Positions 10,813 through 47,915 of a DNA stretch of 64,000 nucleotides are shown piece by piece (position 1 is the first letter of the stretch; every line of letters starts with the position of its first letter). The stretch is taken from NCBI RefSeq assembly GCF_045037415.1, contig NZ_CP173438.1, one strand, 5' to 3'. Source of the stretch: Escherichia coli. Lineage in GTDB: Bacteria > Pseudomonadota > Gammaproteobacteria > Enterobacterales > Enterobacteriaceae. Made by a program: the position numbers and the translations under genes. Under the pieces are notes generated by a model. It did no database searches. It saw only the letters and a program-made list of their open reading frames with translations, and was not told the DNA's origin.

Positions 10813-10983
10813 ATGTTTGTCAAACCTGTTAAAGGGCGGTCAGTGCCTGACCCTGCCCGCGGCGACCTTTTGCCCGCCGAAGGGCGAAATGTTGACGAGA
10901 ACAACTACTGGCTGCGCCGTGAAGCAGCGGGTGATATCCGGCGCGTGAATAAAAAGGTGAACACCGATGACGATAAGCTTTAA
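10813..10983 (+). CDS. Small hypothetical protein, 56 aa (below the ORF-track cutoff)
   Basis: ATG at 10813 to TAA at 10981; fills the gap before the sheath gene. Confidence 0.3.
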   Translation: MFVKPVKGRSVPDPARGDLLPAEGRNVDENNYWLRREAAGDIRRVNKKVNTDDDKL

Positions 10984-12464
10984 CACCATTCCGTCGAATA
11001 CGCTGGTTCCGCTGTTTTATGCGGAAATGGATAACCAGGCGGCGAATACTGCACAGGACAGCGGAGCATCGCTGCTGATTGGTCATGCCAATAACGGTGC
11101 AGAGATTGTTGCCAACAGTCTGGTGCTGATGCCGTCGGCAGACTATGCACGCCAGATTTGTGGTGCGGGAAGTCAGCTGGCGCGTATGGTCGAGGCTTAT
11201 CGCCAGACTGACCCGTTTGGCGAGCTGTATGTGATTGCCGTTCCGGAAGCCACAGGCGCGGCGGCAACGGTTACGCTGACGGTGACCGGGGAGGCAACCG
11301 AAACCGGCACGGTGAATGTTTATGTGGGACGTACCCGCGTGCAGGCACCGGTGACCAACGGCGATAACGTCGCGACGATTGCCAGCAGTATCAAAGATGC
11401 CATCAATGCCGTTCCGACCCTGCCGTTTACTGCCTCATCTTCGGCAGGCGTGGTCACACTGACCGCGCGTCATAAGGGGCTTTGCGGGAATGAAATTCCT
11501 GTCAGCCTCAATTACTACGGCTTTGGTGGGGGCGAAGTGCTGCCAGCGGGCGTACAGATTGCCGTGGCGACGGGGAACGCCGGAACGGGCGCTCCTGTTC
11601 TCACCGGCGCGGTGGCTGCAATGGCGGATGAGCCGTTTGATTATATCGGCCTGCCGTTCAACGACACGGCCTCCGTTAACACGCTGGTGACCGAGATGAA
11701 CGATACCAGCGGTCGCTGGAGCTATGCGCGTCAGCTGTATGGTCATGTGTATACGGCAAAGATCGGCACGCTGTCAGAACTGGTGACCGCAGGTGACCAG
11801 TTTAACCAGCAGCACATTACCCTGGCGGGGTACGAAAAAGAGAACCCAGACGCCTGCCGACGAGCTGGCGGCAAGCCGTACCGCCCGCGCAGCGGTGTTT
11901 ATTCGCAACGATCCGGCACGTCCCACGCAGACCGGTGAGCTGGTGGGTATGCTGCCTGCGCCGAAGGGGAAACGGTTCACGATGACCGAACAACAGACCC
12001 TGCTGTCTCATGGCGTGGCAACGGCGTATGTCGAAAGCGGGGTGCTGCGCATTCAGCGTGATGTCACCACGTACAGGAAAAACGCTTACGGTGTTGCGGA
12101 TAACAGCTACCTCGACAGCGAGACGCTGCATACCAGCGCGTATGTGCTGCGCAAACTGAAATCCGTCATTACCAGTAAGTACGGGCGTCACAAGCTTGCC
12201 AGCGACGGTACCCGCTTTGGTCCCGGTCAGGCGATTGTCACCCCGGCGGTGATCAAAGGGGAACTGCTGGCAACCTACCGTCAGCTTGAGCGTGCGGGGA
12301 TCGTGGAAAACTACGAACTGTTTAAGCAGTACCTGGTTGTGGAGCGTGATGCCAGCGATCCGAACCGCCTGAACACGCTGTTCCCGCCTGACTATGTTAA
12401 CCAGTTGCGTGTCTTTGCCGTGGTTAACCAGTTCCGTCTTCAGTATTCAGAGGAGTCTGCATAA
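10967..12464 (+). CDS. Contractile tail sheath protein (Mu L-like), interrupted by an apparent frameshift at the A-run 11835..11839
   Basis: Two overlapping ORFs (10967..11938 in frame 2, 11793..12464 in frame 0) together give ~500 aa; C-terminal part has a sheath-like LFPPDYVNQLRVFA motif. Confidence 0.7.
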
Positions 12465-20781: not shown

Positions 20782-23157
20782 ATGCATCGTATAGACACGA
20801 AAACCGCGCAGAAGGATAAGTTCGGCGCGGGTAAGAACGGTTTTACCCGTGGTAACCCCCAGACCGGCACGCCTGCCACCGATCTGGATGATGACTACTT
20901 TGACATGTTGCAGGAAGAACTTTGCAGCGTGGTGGAGGCCTCCGGTGCCAGTCTGGAGAAGGCGCGGCACGACCAGCTGCTTACCGCGCTTCGTGCGCTG
21001 CTGTTAAGCCGCAAAAATCCGTTTGGCGATATCAAATCGGATGGCACGGTAGAACGCGCTCTTGAAAATCTGGGGTTACAGGATGTAAAAGCTGGTTCAT
21101 TGAACAATCTGTACACTAACCATTCCCGTAGTGTCTTAATGGAATTGCCGTTATTATTCCCAGACTACGATACGGTGCTGGCTGCTCAGTCTGGTGCGGA
21201 ATATATGTATCCACAGGGATTTGTGGTGACAGGAGAAAAAATCTATCTGAGTTATACCGTTGAGCCAAAGCAGACACGGAACGTTATAGTTCAGTACACA
21301 ACATCCGGCGAATATGAGGGATATTATTATGTCGATAATGGAGGTCGTGGCGTTGTCAGCGAAGGCCTTGTGGTGACAACGGATTACGGTGGATTACGTT
21401 TGTTCATGTCAGGAGAAAATGGATTACTGAAACAGTTTTCGCTTGATGGGGCAATTTCTGGTTCAGTATTGCCGTTAATTGATGAACATGATGTCGGTGT
21501 TTACAACCAGTTCAGCTATCGTAAAAACCGCTGGGTGGTTGAACAGTCAGCGCCGGAAGTGGGAGGCCTGATCACCCGCACAGTATTTGCGGTGTATGAT
21601 TTTCAGTTTCGTCGGACAGGGACATTCACATTACCGTTGCATGATTCCGGATATATCACGGAAAGCACAGACAGCTATGCAAGACGCTTCACAAAACGTC
21701 AGGGAATTGCTGTGGGAGACGATTATATTGCCTGTTCTTATGGTGGCTATTTTAATACCGGGGCATCAGCCGGATTTAACCAGTTTCAGGGGGTTAAGGT
21801 CTTTTCTCCGGATGGAGTAAAGCAGCAGGAATCCATTCTTCATCCCCAAAAAATGATAGATGTGCTTACCAGGCAGGGTTTTACACCTTCGCGCATTGAG
21901 AACGAAGGAATTTGTATTTCTGACGACGGCGGCAGTATATATTCGCTTTATATCTTTCTGGAGCGTGGGTTACCACAGGCTTATCAGAAAGGAATTGTTC
22001 TGATGAAAGAGTTCAGTACTGGCAGAGATGCTATTGATTTTCGTCAGGCAGCCTGGTTGTACACGGGGTTTGATGTGTCTCATGCCAGTATTGGAACATT
22101 TCCCCGTAGTGCCCAGGGGTTGGTAAACCCGGTGTTGGGGACGGTATTCACATCCCTGTCTGAAATTCTGGCATATATGCGTTCTGTGAGTCAGAAATGG
22201 TTTTGTCTGCATACAACCACGACACCGATTAAAGATCTGAGTGGAAATGACATTCCTGCTGACAATTATGTGTTCATCAAGAATGCTAATAACCAGACAT
22301 TCTATATAACGCAGGAGTCAGCTGAAGGTGGAATAAAATATAAAGCTGTCACTACAGACAGCGGAGAATATGGTTTTCAGCGACAAAGAGAGGCAATCTG
22401 GTCCAATGTTATCACCATCGCACAAAAGAGCGATGGTGAGGATCAGTTTAATCGTATTATCGCTGCCTCGAAAAGTGGTTCAGGTAAAAATCAGGATAAA
22501 ATACTGGTAGTTGACCAACAGGCATCAGAGGGGAATAACACGCTGGTAATTGGCGGTGGTTCATCTGTGTTCAGGTCAGCGACAGTGATTGATTTTGCAA
22601 CGAATCAGGATGCAAATGCCACAGGAGGAGAAAAGAGATGGCGCATAGATTCATCAGGAAATCTCCGCCCTTATACAGATAATACGTATTCGATCGGTTA
22701 TGCCTCATGGCGACCCGCACAGGTTTATTCAGCTACGGGAAGTATCAGTACATCAGACCGGACTCATAAACAGGACGAAACAATTCTGTCGGATGCAGAA
22801 AAAAGGGTTGCCAGAAAGCTGCTCGGGTATATCTGTCGGTTCCGTTTCAGAGATGCAGTGTCCAGCAAAGGGAACGCAGCCAGATGGCATGTAGGAGTGA
22901 TTGCTCAGGACGTACAGAAGGTCTTCTCTGAGGAAGGGCTGGACGCTTTTGATTACGGTATTTTGTGTCGTGATGAATATCCGGCGGAATATGAAGTGGT
23001 TTACGGGACTCGTATGGAGCTTGGTCCTGACGGACTCCTTACAATGGAAGAATACGATACCGGAGAGCGCAAGCTGGTCAGGGAGGCTGGTGAAATAATG
23101 TCTGTAAGGAATGATGAGCTGCATTATTTCATGCTGGCATCGCTGTCTGGCCAGTGA
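20782..23157 (+). CDS. Tail fibre protein with C-terminal intramolecular chaperone (peptidase S74-like) domain
   Basis: 791 aa; AT-rich mosaic central part; C-terminal ~130 aa resembles the self-cleaving chaperone domain of fibres and tailspikes. Confidence 0.8.
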
Positions 23158-23167
23158 ATAATATTAA

Positions 23168-23194
23168 TGTAAGGAGCGATATAAGCTCCTTACA
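23168..23194 (+). terminator. Hairpin after the tail fibre gene (possible terminator, weak U-tract)
   Basis: 10-bp stem TGTAAGGAGC/GCTCCTTACA with 7-nt loop. Confidence 0.4.
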
Positions 23195-23889
23195 TCATGC
23201 ATTTTATGCTGCGATTATGCGTTCTCCTGTTGTTTGTTGCTGAGAGTGAAACACCGGAAACATACTGGTGGATTGAAATGTTCTGTGTGGCAGCGTATGA
23301 ATATGTCGTGGTAGGGTGGATAAAAAATGCCCGTGATGATCCGGGCAACATAGCAGTATGCATTTTTCTATTGTGAACTGATGCATTATACAAGTAATGC
23401 TGTTATTGAGGAAAGTTTAAAGAAGCGGCTCTTCTCCGCCTGTAAAGTTTGGTCATTATTGCTTTATATATAAGTTCCACCAGTAGGCGATCATCTATGA
23501 TGTTGGCATATCGACTTTGTATAAGAGGTTTCCGGTCGGAGATAAATGAAACCGTAGCACGTCGTATGCAAGAACGTGCCACGGCTGGCTGGCGAACTTT
23601 CGATAGTGCGAGTATTGAATGATTTCCAGCTGTTACTGATTTTATATAACTGCAGTGGAATTATTCAACACACAGGCAAAACGGAATAAGCTGAGAAAAA
23701 AAAGCGTGCTTTCCCAATCTGGGGTAAATCACATCTGAATGACACCTGAAAACAGGTGGTGGCCTCAAGAAGGCTTGGAATATTCTTCTTTAATGTTATG
23801 TAATTTATTGATTTTTCGTGTACGATTTTAAGACATTTATTCCAAGAAAAATTTTTAACTCTTTGATTTTTCGACTCTGTATCATCGGT

Positions 23890-23948
23890 TCTCGAAAACC
23901 GGAGTAGGGGCAACTCTACCGGGGGTTCAAATCCCCCTCTCTCCGCCA
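23890..23948 (+). repeat. 3' fragment of tRNA-Ser(CGA) (serU-like, anticodon loop to CCA); putative prophage att core repeat
   Basis: 59 nt TCTCGAAAACCGGAGTAGGGGCAACTCTACCGGGGGTTCAAATCCCCCTCTCTCCGCCA match the 3' part of remembered E. coli tRNA-Ser(CGA); the 5' half is absent. Confidence 0.75.
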
Positions 23949-24617
23949 CTTTATCAATGACTTATCTCCCGACTTCCCGCCTTGCTTTTCCTAAACAGAA
24001 CAATCGTAGGATATTCTTGAAGGGTTAGATCGTCACTGTTTTCTGTTCGATACTGTGACATTCAGCACTTGATTCGCTATGGGTCTGACAGGAAGGTTTC
24101 GAGCGAAAATCTACAGTTATTCAGTCGTTTTCTTATCGGTCACCATTATTCTTTTAGACATTGATCCTATGAAACTGCCGCAAAGTTGCTGGCGGGAACT
24201 GAAGTTGCGTAGAGAAGGGGTCAATAATTGAGCCAAAAAAGGAACGCGGCCGTCAGATTAAAGCCGCGGGACAAAGTCCATAATTTCCAAGAGTTGTTGA
24301 ATTTCCCAGCTTTTTTGAAAGCCTTTGTATCATACTAACAAGTAAAAAAGGTTTAAACACCAAAATTAACCTATATTTCTGGTTAGCTTTACCATGACAG
24401 ATGACTTGCTCCTGGAGACATTTGCGCTGCCAGTCTGTATGGCTGAGTTGTGTATTTATTGTTCGCCTTTTTCTCAGTTTTTTTCTACAGACATAATAAA
24501 AAAGACACGACTCAAGTATGAGCGTGTCTGAGTTTGTCTTACTTATTTGTCTTGGTAAATTATTGTTGTTACTACCAGGCACTGTTCTGTTAAATAACTG
24601 AAGTCAGCGCAAAAAAA

Positions 24618-25268
24618 TCAATGAGACATCATCTCCTCGACCACTTCTTCGCTACTCAACTGATAGGGATAATACGTTGGCCAGTTTTCCATTTCATTCA
24701 ATAAAGATTGCTGGGAATCATTACCCATAAAAATGTGAAAATGAGATGATTTTCGTGGTGCAATTATATGATCGCTAAATTGTATATATTTAGGGGCTTT
24801 GCTTTCAGGATCTTTACATTCGAATAAGTAACGAACGCCTTTCTTGCCTGATTTATAGGTGAGTATTTTGTATCCATCGTAATCATATTTACAGGATGTT
24901 GTTTCATTATTTCTATGGAATTCGACAATGCCGTCCTCAATGCCAATCATTTCGATATCTGTCGCATAACCTTTGCGATAATAATCTTTAATTTCAGCAA
25001 ATGTTTTGGTTTTATCTGCATCCGCTTTCTTCTGAAAGACGGGGTCAAGTTTGCCACTTTGCAGTAAAGGGTAAACGGATTGCCAGACTCCATCCCAGTC
25101 ACTGAGCGTTCGGTTTTGTACATTGGTATCATCAAAAACACCATTAGCAGCTTTTTGTTCGACCTCTGTTAAGGGTTTGCCGTGTGAGTGATGACCATGC
25201 GAAAAGGCAGGAGCGCTAACAATAAAGACACCTAAAGCAACAGCCAGTTTATGAAGACGAATCGCCAA
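24618..25268 (-). CDS. zinT: Metal-binding periplasmic protein ZinT
   Basis: 216 aa; His-rich N-terminus ([16 protein letters not shown]) and overall match to ZinT/YodA. Confidence 0.9.
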
Positions 25269-25477: not shown

Positions 25478-26910
<1,433 letters not shown>

Positions 26911-45395: not shown

Positions 45396-46133
45396 CTAGC
45401 TGTAAAAGCTCTGCGCCAGCGAACCGACCAGCAATTGCCAGCCATCCACCAGTACAAACAGCATCAGTTTAAAGGGCAGAGCAATGGTGGCTGGGGGAAC
45501 CATCATCATCCCCAATGCCATCAACACGCTGGCAATCACCAGGTCGATAATCAAAAAAGGGATGAAAATCGTGAAGCCTATCTGAAATGCGGTTTTCAAC
45601 TCGCTGGTCACGTAGGCCGGGAGCAAAATGCGCATCGGCACAGCTTCAGGCCCCTGCAACGGGCCGGTATTCGCCAGTCTGGCAAACAACCCTAAATCCG
45701 CCTCGCGGGTCTGACGCAGCATAAACTCACGCAGCGGCTGCGCCCCTTTTTCCAGCGCCTCCTGCATTGAGATTTTCTCTTCGCTGAATGGCTGGTACGC
45801 ATCGACATAAATTTTGTCGATCACTGGCGACATAATAAAAAAGGTCAAAAACAGTGCCAGTCCCAGCAATACCTGGTTAGGTGGCGCGGAGGGCGTTCCC
45901 AGCGCGTTACGCAATAAACCAAAAACAATAATGATGCGGGTGAAACTGGTCATCATCAGTAAAATCGCTGGAATGAACGTCAACGAGGTGATGAACACCA
46001 GCGTCTGCACCGGGAGCGACCAGCTTTGTCCACCGCCAGGTAGCGGCTGGCTGGTGATACCCGGCAGTTGCGCGAAGGCGAGGGGCGTAATCAGCCAGAG
46101 AAGGACCGGTGCGACAGAAAACAAACGACGCAT
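45396..46133 (-). CDS. fliP: Flagellar export apparatus protein FliP
   Basis: 245 aa with signal peptide. Confidence 0.95.
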
Positions 46134-46501
46134 CAGGATCTCCCGCCACGCTTAAGCAAATTTTTCATGACCGACTGAAAATCGGTCTGCGGTATCTCCT
46201 CCGTTGGTGCTGAAGGGGGAAGTTTATGTAGCAGATTGATTTGCCCTGCGGTAACGCCGAGCACCAGCCGTGCATCTTCCACATCGACCACCACGACCCG
46301 TTCACGCGCGCCCAGCGAAGCACTGGCGCTAATTTTCAGACCGTTAACGCCAGTGCGTTTAGGGGCAAATCCCAGCCGTTTTACCAGCCAGGCGGCAGCG
46401 AGGATCAGGGCAATAATGGCGATGAGTGCGCCGCTCACCTGCAGCAGTGGCGCAGCAGAAACCGGCGCGGAAGATTGCACAGTAGCATGGTTATTCATCA
46501 C
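46133..46501 (-). CDS. fliO: Flagellar protein FliO
   Basis: 122 aa with a single transmembrane segment. Confidence 0.9.
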
Positions 46502-46914
46502 TAACGGCTCAGGCGGCGCATCCGCTCGGACGGGGTAATGATATCGGTGATCCGCACGCCATATTTATCGGCAACAACCACCACTTCGCCCTGGGCGATT
46601 AAATAACCGTTGATCAGAATATCCAGCGGTTCGCCCGCCAGACCGTCCAGCGCCACGACTGATCCTTGCGTCAGACGCAACAGCTCTTTGATGGTCATCC
46701 GCGTACGGCCCAGCTCGACGGTCAGCTTGACCGGAATATCCATAATCAGGTCGATATCCTGCAACGTTCCGCTGACATCTCCGCCGCCAAATTGCTGGAA
46801 CATTGCGTCGGCAGCGCTTTTTCCGCTGGTTGATTTTTGCTCGCTCAACGCTTCAGCCCACATATCGTCCATTGCGCCGTTGTTGTCATCGGCCGGATTA
46901 TTCATGTCACTCAT
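46501..46914 (-). CDS. fliN: Flagellar motor switch protein FliN
   Basis: 137 aa. Confidence 0.95.
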   Translation of the reverse strand: MSDMNNPADDNNGAMDDMWAEALSEQKSTSGKSAADAMFQQFGGGDVSGTLQDIDLIMDIPVKLTVELGRTRMTIKELLRLTQGSVVALDGLAGEPLDILINGYLIAQGEVVVVADKYGVRITDIITPSERMRRLSR

Positions 46915-47915
46915 TTGGGCTGTTCCTCGTTCAGAGAATTTAAAATCGGGTTAATCAAATGTTCTATCCGTAACGCATACTGACCGTTGAGAGTGCCGTA
47001 CTGACTGGTCAGAACCGGGACGCCGTCAACATGGGCGATGATGCGATCGGGTTTTTCTATCGGCAGGACGTCGCCGGGTTTCAGTTTTAAAATCTGCGAC
47101 AGGCGTAGCGAGATATCGGCAAAGTTGGCCACCAGTTCCAGCTGTGAATGCTGCACCTGGCGCACCAGGTTATCGCGCCAGTTCTGATCTTCATTACGCG
47201 AGTTTTCCAGCGGCGGGTTAACCAACAATTCCCGTAGCGGCTCGATCATGCTGAATGGCAGGCAGATATTAAATTCGCCGGTCAGGTTGCCAATCTCCAC
47301 ATGGAACGGCGTGTTAACCACAATGTCGTTCGGCGAGGTGGTGATATTGGTAAATTTCACCTGCATTTCCGAACGCACGTACTCAACTTCCAGCGGATTA
47401 ATCGCTTTCCAGGCGTCGCTATAGCCTTCAAGCGCCAGCTTTAACATGCGGTTGATGACGCGCTGTTCGGTATGAGTAAACTCGCGACCTTCCACTTTGG
47501 TCGGGAAGCGTCCATCGCCGCCAAACAGGTTATCCACGGCGATAAACACCAGGCTCGGCGAGAACACCACCAGCCCTGTGCCGCGCAGCGGTTTAAGGTG
47601 GATAAGGTTCAGGTTGGTCGGCACCGGCAAGTTGCGGGCAAATTCATGGTACGGCTGAATGCGGATGGCCCCGACGGTAATGTCCGGGCTACGGCGCAGC
47701 AGGTTGAACAGCCCCATACGAAAATGGCGGGCAAAGCGCTCATTAATGATTTCCAGCGCCTGCAAACGTTCGCGCACAACCCGTCGTTGGGTATTCGGAT
47801 CGTACGGACGAATGTCACTTTCGCCGCTAACACTGGCTGTCGGTTCGTCTTTGACTTCGCTGTCACCATTCAACAGCGCATCAATTTCAGCTTGAGAAAG
47901 AATACTATCGCCCAT
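46911..47915 (-). CDS. fliM: Flagellar motor switch protein FliM
   Basis: Start at the internal Met (MGDSILSQAEIDALL) gives 334 aa; the ORF-track start is an upstream extension. Confidence 0.95.
   Translation of the reverse strand: MGDSILSQAEIDALLNGDSEVKDEPTASVSGESDIRPYDPNTQRRVVRERLQALEIINERFARHFRMGLFNLLRRSPDITVGAIRIQPYHEFARNLPVPTNLNLIHLKPLRGTGLVVFSPSLVFIAVDNLFGGDGRFPTKVEGREFTHTEQRVINRMLKLALEGYSDAWKAINPLEVEYVRSEMQVKFTNITTSPNDIVVNTPFHVEIGNLTGEFNICLPFSMIEPLRELLVNPPLENSRNEDQNWRDNLVRQVQHSQLELVANFADISLRLSQILKLKPGDVLPIEKPDRIIAHVDGVPVLTSQYGTLNGQYALRIEHLINPILNSLNEEQPK

Follow-up and report, generated by a model that had tools for sequence, protein, structure and literature searches.

The window, by which we mean the whole 64-kb stretch of DNA that was analysed, changes from phage to chromosomal DNA within an interval of 1460 nt, which separates a tail-fibre gene from zinT and consists of a 59-nt tRNA fragment flanked by 732 nt of phage DNA and 669 nt of chromosomal DNA. 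The main features are as follows.

20782..23157, plus strand: tail-fibre gene, the last prophage gene, encoding 791 aa with a C-terminal Peptidase_S74 chaperone domain (Pfam PF13884, E 1.3e-9)
23890..23948, plus strand: attR core repeat, the displaced original 3' part of the serU tRNA-Ser(CGA) gene
24618..25268, minus strand: zinT (PF09223), the first chromosomal gene past the junction

The fragment at 23890-23948 matches the 3' end of the K-12 serU gene for tRNA-Ser(CGA) at 59 out of 59 nt, starting with the final base in the 5' strand of the anticodon stem and extending through CCA, and an exact match of this length cannot have arisen by chance. ARAGORN detected no tRNA gene in the 64-kb window and the fragment lacks a 5' half, in line with an earlier note on this DNA, which had recognised the 3' 59 nt of tRNA-Ser(CGA) at this position with the 5' half missing. 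The interval has a GC content of 0.40 compared with 0.50 for the whole window and contains no ORF longer than 109 aa. Of the nine ORFs that reach 40 aa (range 40-109 aa), none scored significantly against Pfam; a 94-aa ORF antisense to the tRNA fragment alone returned matches, two in number and both below threshold (E 0.024 and 0.057). Among 5426 complete E. coli genomes, 42 contain the complete interval at 99.9% identity, and those of the 42 that carry type labels are O25b:H4-ST131.

The left end of the prophage lies outside the window, and the pairing of the two ends was read from near-identical genomes and not from the source genome. One of these 42 genomes, that of strain THO-003, is collinear with the whole window, with five differences in 64 kb (three one-base insertions in the window and two substitutions), and window position 1 corresponds to position 24760 of its locus (L002). 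In this locus, an intact tRNA-Ser(CGA), found by ARAGORN and annotated in the record, is located at 8525-8614 and, together with the adjoining tyrosine integrase gene, lies 40,091 bp upstream of the fragment and about 16 kb before the window start, that is, in the region beyond the window where the earlier note had expected both of them. Aligning the two att repeats, as had been proposed there, revealed a 62-nt direct repeat at both ends (8553-8614 and 48644-48705, spacing 40,091 nt), which is the sole long direct repeat in the 40.5 kb. All 42 near-identical genomes have this repeat as CGG plus the 59 nt, and in them, as in THO-003, the intact tRNA-Ser and the integrase gene are 40,091 bp upstream. 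The stretch from one repeat to the other is occupied by phage genes: the tRNA is followed by int on the minus strand, a DUF4224 gene, an exonuclease gene and lambdoid control genes, and later by lysis, head, contractile-tail and baseplate genes ending at the tail fibre. The int gene is a full-length ORF of 341 aa encoding a tyrosine recombinase (PF00589), its stop codon is located 53 nt from the tRNA end, and its product is 94% identical, end to end and free of gaps, to the integrase of the DEC5B (O55:H7) prophage. PGAP tags this integrase gene as 'frameshifted' despite the ORF matching a 341-aa homologue over its full length.

Furthermore, a prophage-free strain of the same lineage, SK1144, sharing with the window the IS1397 between zinT and msrQ as well as the yersiniabactin island at asnT, provided the empty site for comparison that the earlier note had called for. 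Here a single intact serU is followed by the identical 669 nt and then by zinT. The SK1144 site is the exact attB, with serU joined to CTTTATCAATG..., and nothing was removed by integration. The repeat pair and the empty site bear out the proposal that the fragment is the distal att repeat of a tRNA-integrated element; no intact tRNA-Ser occupies this position, and the partner repeat is present at the other end, the two points on which that proposal had been made to stand or fall.

Overall, we interpret the junction as the attR of a prophage of approximately 40 kb that was placed in serU by tyrosine-integrase site-specific recombination, a reading to which we assign a probability of roughly 0.93. 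The attR comprises window positions 23689-23948, and the prophage combines lambdoid control genes with a contractile tail. The junction is conventional and of an already-known kind at a known hot spot, in an E. coli host of ST131 type. According to the mechanism we propose, attP would itself contain the 3'-terminal 62 nt of serU, and strand exchange in the anticodon stem-loop would regenerate a complete but hybrid tRNA gene beside int at the left end, its 5' part coming from the chromosome and its 3' part from the phage. The chromosome's own 3' part would be displaced by 40 kb and persist as the orphan fragment (23890-23948). To the left of this fragment, 200 nt would represent the phage arm with likely integrase arm-binding motifs; the remainder of the 732 nt is non-coding debris of phage-phage recombination (a small-gene remnant, an invertase stump and a lambdoid linker), and the 669 nt to the right are unaltered chromosome.

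The two copies of the repeat differ at two positions, which form a base pair in the stem of the variable arm and are distributed as listed.

attB, variable-arm pair: A..T
Window attR, variable-arm pair: A..T
attL, variable-arm pair: G..C
DEC5B phage-phage junction, variable-arm pair: G..C, linked to the int-side arm

Since attR and attB share A..T, whereas attL and the int-side copy of DEC5B share G..C, the 3' part of the regenerated tRNA would be phage-supplied, and the same pattern places the exchange within the 19 nt CGGTCTCGAAAACCGGAGT in the anticodon stem-loop. We infer the crossover position in CGGTCTCGAAAACCGGAGT, and likewise the ability of the prophage to excise today, from these sequence comparisons. 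The right prophage boundary is fixed at window 23889/23890, and with the phage-supplied repeat copy situated at the left end, the other prophage edge would consequently be the end of the intact tRNA gene. tRNA attachment sites were reportedly classed by Williams in 2002, one class being that of the anticodon loop, and on our reading the serU site described here falls into this class.

The phage arm extends up to the core and recurs in other phages and prophages.

23689..23889, unstranded: phage arm of the attachment site (P arm), which travels with this integrase type

A block starting at 23689 is 95-97% identical to ev099, PhiR70_1 and mEp332 and is also found in many serU prophages, with SerU-LTIIb matching at approximately 91% over the core-proximal 120 nt only (from 23770). 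The arm is likewise common to the DEC5B prophage junction, where tandem prophages show arm, core, arm and int contiguously, in an attP-like arrangement. The motif CTTGGAATA occurs in just two copies in the 64-kb window, at 23774-23782 (plus strand) and 23838-23846 (minus strand), both less than 120 nt from the core, a count that by itself is not significant, as at least two copies arose in 8 out of 100 shuffles. Three more direct copies, CTTGGAAT, are located in the int-side (P') arm of attL, 46-76 nt past the tRNA end and overlapping the end of int. With lambda as the model, the CTTGGAATA copies are candidate integrase arm-type sites at which binding is presumed. In Salmonella arizonae and Citrobacter werkmanii, serU is bordered by int-side arms of a related kind that contain TTGGTATA repeats. 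As sources of an attP, the free phages ev099 and mEp332 were considered and rejected; at this spot they have a captured attR with host DNA instead, consisting of the tRNA fragment and 278 nt of chromosome.

Moving outwards from the arm, the 732-nt 'ORF-less' phage DNA is a recombination mosaic, and its make-up explains the lack of ORFs. Four elements were recognised.

23167..23195, unstranded: perfect 11-bp hairpin directly 3' of the tail-fibre stop, terminator-like on both strands
23269..23319, plus strand: degraded remnant of a gene of approximately 96 aa (87% identity over 53 nt, two frame-breaking gaps)
23486..23549, plus strand: 3' end of a Pin/Gin-type DNA invertase gene, approximately 20 codons plus stop (last 64 nt)
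23542..23672, unstranded: lambdoid non-coding module (approximately 100 nt), found downstream of pin, stf or tfa in very many lambdoid prophages

The hairpin, with a folding energy of -17.4 kcal/mol and a z-score of -6.1 (none of 200 shuffles folded as well), is probably where the late operon ends. In phage PhiR40_1 and the AST205 prophage, the gene of approximately 96 aa comes after the tail-fibre genes; a 59-aa ORF at 23197-23376 is what remains of it here, with protein likeness only around 'WIEMF'. The invertase stump translates to AIIYDVGISTLYKRFPVGDK followed by a stop, compared with ...VAIIYDVGVSTLYKKFPVGDK and stop at the end of PinE, and an in-frame stop lies just upstream, so that no full-length serine recombinase ORF (approximately 185 aa) exists and the sequence is a remnant and not a gene; it marks where an invertible tail-fibre segment has been lost. 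Partial matches to the lambdoid module were obtained in 3182 of the 5426 genomes as well as in HK97, HK106, phi80, phiP27 and Stx phages, and in HK97 it is placed between tfa and the sib site. The module is probably a recombination linker. The boundaries between modules are independent of one another: one IMG/VR contig (L172) is the same as the window up to 23672 and diverges beyond, whereas position 23689 is where similarity of the arm to ev099, PhiR70_1 and mEp332 begins. The earlier note had seen no convincing ORF in these roughly 730 nt, an observation now accounted for by gene remnants plus an att arm. More generally, 'ORF-less' DNA at prophage ends usually consists of att arms and recombination scars.

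Several further candidates in this region were rejected. A sib-like retroregulator at 23690-23727 was dismissed on its folding energy: at the distance from the core that corresponds to the HK97 sib, which immediately follows the shared 100-nt module at 137-186 nt from the core and folds at -28.2 kcal/mol (z -6.1), the window holds an A8 run and a weak hairpin of -7.7 kcal/mol (z -0.6), and the strong extended hairpin with a U-run on the int strand that characterises sib/tI is absent beyond the P arm. Among below-threshold Rfam matches, CssrB corresponded to one module hairpin only, Plastid-psbI-rps4 to nothing but the antisense of the tRNA fragment, and sX4 and tmRNA to chance or partial similarity.

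On the chromosomal side, the 669 nt between the fragment and zinT consist of two parts.

23949..24395, unstranded: non-coding DNA downstream of serU, present in 5420 of 5426 genomes and 96% identical to K-12
24396..24617, unstranded: 222-nt yodB-less allele, unrelated in sequence to the 995 nt holding yodB that it replaces in K-12

Together with the fragment, the first part aligns to K-12 serU-proximal DNA at 96% (window 23890-24395), and from 24618 onward the sequence is zinT, whose terminator lies inside the 222-nt allele on the minus strand (stem 24529-24503, U-run 24502-24497; -15.3 kcal/mol, z -4.7). In 120 loci outside Escherichia, no conservation of the DNA downstream of serU was seen. 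yodB was not found by tblastn across the window at E<=1e-3, confirming the absence of the gene that the earlier note had reported; within the interval, tblastn returned two chance-level matches of 8-12 aa (E 0.037 and 1.3), and a yodB remnant was discarded by both blastn and tblastn. As the lineage carries the yodB-less allele, the 669 nt hold no yodB. This allele occurs in 2304 of the 5426 genomes (42%) and the K-12 yodB allele in 3114, which together account for 5418 genomes, and SK1144, with its empty site, and CFT073 both carry the yodB-less form. The absence of yodB is a species-wide dimorphism unrelated to the phage. The gene order of K-12 is not the norm for E. coli, yodB being missing from 42% of complete genomes. 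The name 'yodE' was set aside, as it lies in RyeG elsewhere in the genome, and so was a hydrophobic 50-aa ORF at 24079-24231, which has stops in other copies and in which all differences between K-12 and the window are non-synonymous.

Finally, the window differs from THO-003 by three insertions, at 11843, 23889/90 and 26001, each of which duplicates the adjacent base. The insertion at 11843 splits the 498-aa tail-sheath ORF into 323 and 223 aa, and that at 26001 lengthens the A7 run at the IS1397 frameshift site to A8. The extra T at 23889/23890 reduces the 62-nt exact repeat to 59 nt and is absent from all 5426 genomes, the site without it reading CGGTCTCG. An excess of insertions (three) over substitutions (two) across 64 kb looks like assembly error; if real, the extra T may hinder excision.

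Considering these data, three other accounts of the junction can be weighed against an attR formed by clean integration. The earlier note had left two alternatives for the missing yodB, a different local order or a deletion at integration, and the former holds while the latter fails. Loss of yodB or other chromosomal DNA at integration or by aberrant excision, which would make the junction a scar instead of a clean attR, could draw on the shorter distance between zinT and serU (669 nt in the window compared with 1442 nt with yodB in K-12) and on the aberrant excision known at serU from ev099 and mEp332. Yet the prophage-free sister SK1144 has the identical 669 nt, the two alleles divide nearly the whole species between them, CFT073 and many strains without this phage carry the 222-nt form, and the alleles diverge at the zinT stop codon, 669 nt away from the att core, so that this account is refuted in practice; a false lead is thereby removed and the neighbouring chromosome shown to be intact. 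Hardly more probable is the notion that the fragment is the leftover of an older, lost serU element and not the partner of the adjoining prophage. serU does host several kinds of element, as exemplified by CFT073 with a different integrase and a 14-nt tRNA repeat and by the tandem prophages of DEC5B, but a single repeat pair spans the 40.5 kb, the arm that adjoins the fragment is found in DEC5B joined to the core and int-side arm of this integrase type, and SK1144 has an empty site free of any spare fragment. A true attR that is locked, with the extra T at the core edge by the crossover region and the frameshifted sheath indicating a decaying, non-excisable prophage, is a less remote proposition but still improbable: the T insertion is unique to the window and the sheath ORF is indeed broken, whereas the surplus of one-base insertions over substitutions, the duplication of the adjacent base each time and the location of one of them in an A7 run resemble error.

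A further account grants the gene-poor DNA a function through two small RNAs, one on each side of the tRNA fragment.

23322..23378, minus strand: candidate 57-nt prophage sRNA, a hint only (TATAAT at 23390-23385; terminator stem 23347-23328 followed by U6)
24235..24322, minus strand: candidate core-genome sRNA of approximately 88 nt, a hint only (TTTAAA and TATGAT spaced by 17 nt at 24357-24329; G+C-rich hairpin 24268-24245 followed by UUCCUUUUUU)

Both candidates, an AgvB/AsxR-type RNA read from 23378 to 23322 and an Escherichia-specific one read from 24322 to 24235, have a -10-like box and an intrinsic terminator. The 57-nt candidate resembles the anti-sRNAs of 51-60 nt in length and terminator (PMC4104026). 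Like AgvB and AsxR (RF02702, RF02703) it is prophage-borne, has an A/C-rich 5' part and shares the identical terminator base UUGCCCG-N8-CGGGCAUUUUUU. Homologues of AgvB and AsxR have a conserved 3' region (nt ~18-60) and a variable 5' end (PMC4104026); the window candidate differs from them in lying after the tail fibre and not at the moron site 3' of PR' (PMC4104026), and its central region is not conserved. Its Rfam scores of 22.9 bits for AgvB and 17 for AsxR are well under the gathering thresholds of 56 and 63, its folding z-score is -2.4, and every copy found is identical, leaving no variants for covariation. The terminator pattern is in addition generic: a search of IMG/VR gave 121 matches, comprising 87 of AgvB (86 identical and one single-base variant), two of the window element itself, identical in sequence, and 32 of unrelated terminators. 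The likeness to AgvB, with identical copies as the only ones compared, does not go beyond the base of the terminator and a handful of neighbouring nucleotides. The 88-nt candidate, which in K-12 corresponds to 2,043,094-2,043,181 on the plus strand, is near-invariant among four divergent strains, far above its surroundings, with approximately 13 substitutions in the adjoining 180 nt. It nevertheless has a folding z-score of only -0.8, no Rfam match and no counterpart beside serU outside Escherichia, and its hairpin could be the distal yodB terminator in K-12-type strains. We regard it as unlikely that the region functions through these two RNAs, and as slightly less likely still that the 1.4 kb hides two unannotated regulatory sRNAs, namely a prophage RNA of 57 nt distantly related to AgvB/AsxR and a core RNA of approximately 88 nt. 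If so, the former may sit after the tail fibre in an ExPEC ST131 prophage, as opposed to AgvB/AsxR in EHEC, and the latter may be near-invariant between serU and zinT or yodB in both yodB alleles; either would be a modest addition to the catalogue of prophage and core sRNAs.

An attR formed by clean integration into serU agrees well with what is established for comparable sites. In lambda-type tRNA att sites of the anticodon-loop class, attP holds the tRNA 3' part from the anticodon stem to CCA, as here, and in those sites as well as in this prophage int is located beside the regenerated tRNA with the orphan 3' fragment at the far end. The anticodon stem provides a dyad at the crossover, and arm motifs lie on both sides, like lambda P1-P2 and P'1-P'3. 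No substantive difference from this class was apparent, with arm binding and the exact 7-bp overlap being putative in the present case. serU is a recognised site for prophages and islands (PMC8767318, PMC7067040) and is split in approximately 29% of complete E. coli genomes, as judged by a 300-nt attB probe that is unbroken in 3856 of the 5426. The same tRNA fragment is annotated in GenBank for 'phage SerU-LTIIb' (KU052038.1), and the same core is found in SerU-LTIIb, the O55:H7 DEC5B prophages and the serU prophages of STEC O121:H19 and O145:H28 (PMC8767318, PMC7067040). In these lambdoid serU prophages, the arm is 91-97% identical and both CTTGGAATA copies are kept. By contrast, the cargo and structural modules differ: in the present prophage, a contractile tail is accompanied by Mu-like baseplate genes and a tail fibre of the S74 type, and the strain that carries it belongs to ST131-type ExPEC and not to STEC or ETEC. 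The PAI-CFT073-serU island, in turn, shares with the window the same tRNA gene, the same downstream 669 nt and the yodB-less allele, but repeats only 14 nt of the tRNA 3' end and uses a different sublocation and integrase family.

The segment corresponding to window 23689-24226 recurs in two free lambdoid phage genomes, ev099 (locus L010, 2501-3035) and mEp332 (locus L009, 2601-3135), in both of which it is made up of the att arm, the 3' fragment of serU and a 278-nt piece of E. coli chromosomal DNA from downstream of serU. Because this host-derived segment is 97% identical to K-12, we conclude that it did not originate from the propagation host. The segment is a fossil attR, caught in an old aberrant excision and maintained as present-day phage cargo, where it adjoins an AraC-type regulator.

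At the serU site of CFT073 (locus L008, 2987-3000) we found an island with a different integrase, whose repeat covers just the final 14 nt of that tRNA, and therefore two integrase families use distinct sublocations within one tRNA gene. Additionally, E. coli serU together with the downstream 447 nt was found at 96% identity on a 2.9-kb contig (CAUHML010000302.1) of a metagenome-assembled genome labelled 'uncultured Bacteroides sp.', and this contig is likely a binning contaminant.

The two sides of the serU fragment each carry a possible small-RNA element:

23322-23390, minus strand: TATAAT box, followed by 57 nt with an intrinsic terminator
24235-24357, minus strand: TTTAAA-17-TATGAT resembling a promoter, followed by about 88 nt and by a G+C hairpin and its U-run

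For the element at 23322-23390, the top Rfam matches were two prophage anti-sRNAs, with scores (22.9 bits for AgvB, 17 bits for AsxR) that fall far short of the threshold. Its 288-nt surroundings (23198-23485) are present in 57 genomes, every copy being at least 99% identical, and identical copies of the element itself were obtained from two IMG/VR contigs. The stretch at 24235-24357 has neither an annotation in K-12 nor a match in Rfam, and was not found beside serU outside Escherichia; it is almost unchanged among K-12, CFT073, one ETEC strain and the window, with about 13 substitutions in the neighbouring 180 nt.

Comparing the window with its close relatives, we observed that the programmed-frameshift slippery run of IS1397 (25520-26878) is A8 at window 26001, not A7, so that orfA and orfB form a single fused transposase ORF of 452 aa, whereas THO-003 and SK1144 have the A7 run with the frameshift annotated. 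Furthermore, one extra base relative to THO-003 at 11843, within the tail sheath gene (10967-12464), splits a 498-aa ORF into 323 and 223 aa. All three indels of the window versus THO-003 in 64 kb (11843, the additional T at 23889/90 and the A7-to-A8 change at 26001) duplicate the adjacent base, and reflect either errors in the assembly or inactivating mutations private to the window.

Inside the tail-fibre ORF (window 20782-23157; 45540-47915 of the THO-003 locus L002), which is an uninterrupted 791 aa, the window and THO-003 show no sequence differences, yet the THO-003 record divides this ORF into a pseudogene fragment labelled 'StfP' and a tail-fibre protein of 326 aa annotated separately. 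In the O55:H7 strain DEC5B, RefSeq places a 55-aa 'capsid protein' (locus L004, 2966-3133, equivalent to window ~23522-23689) over the shared non-coding lambdoid module; its frame overlaps a hairpin, it has no match in Pfam, and elsewhere the same product is named 'nucleocapsid protein'. The protein name is probably a spurious one spread by the annotation pipeline.
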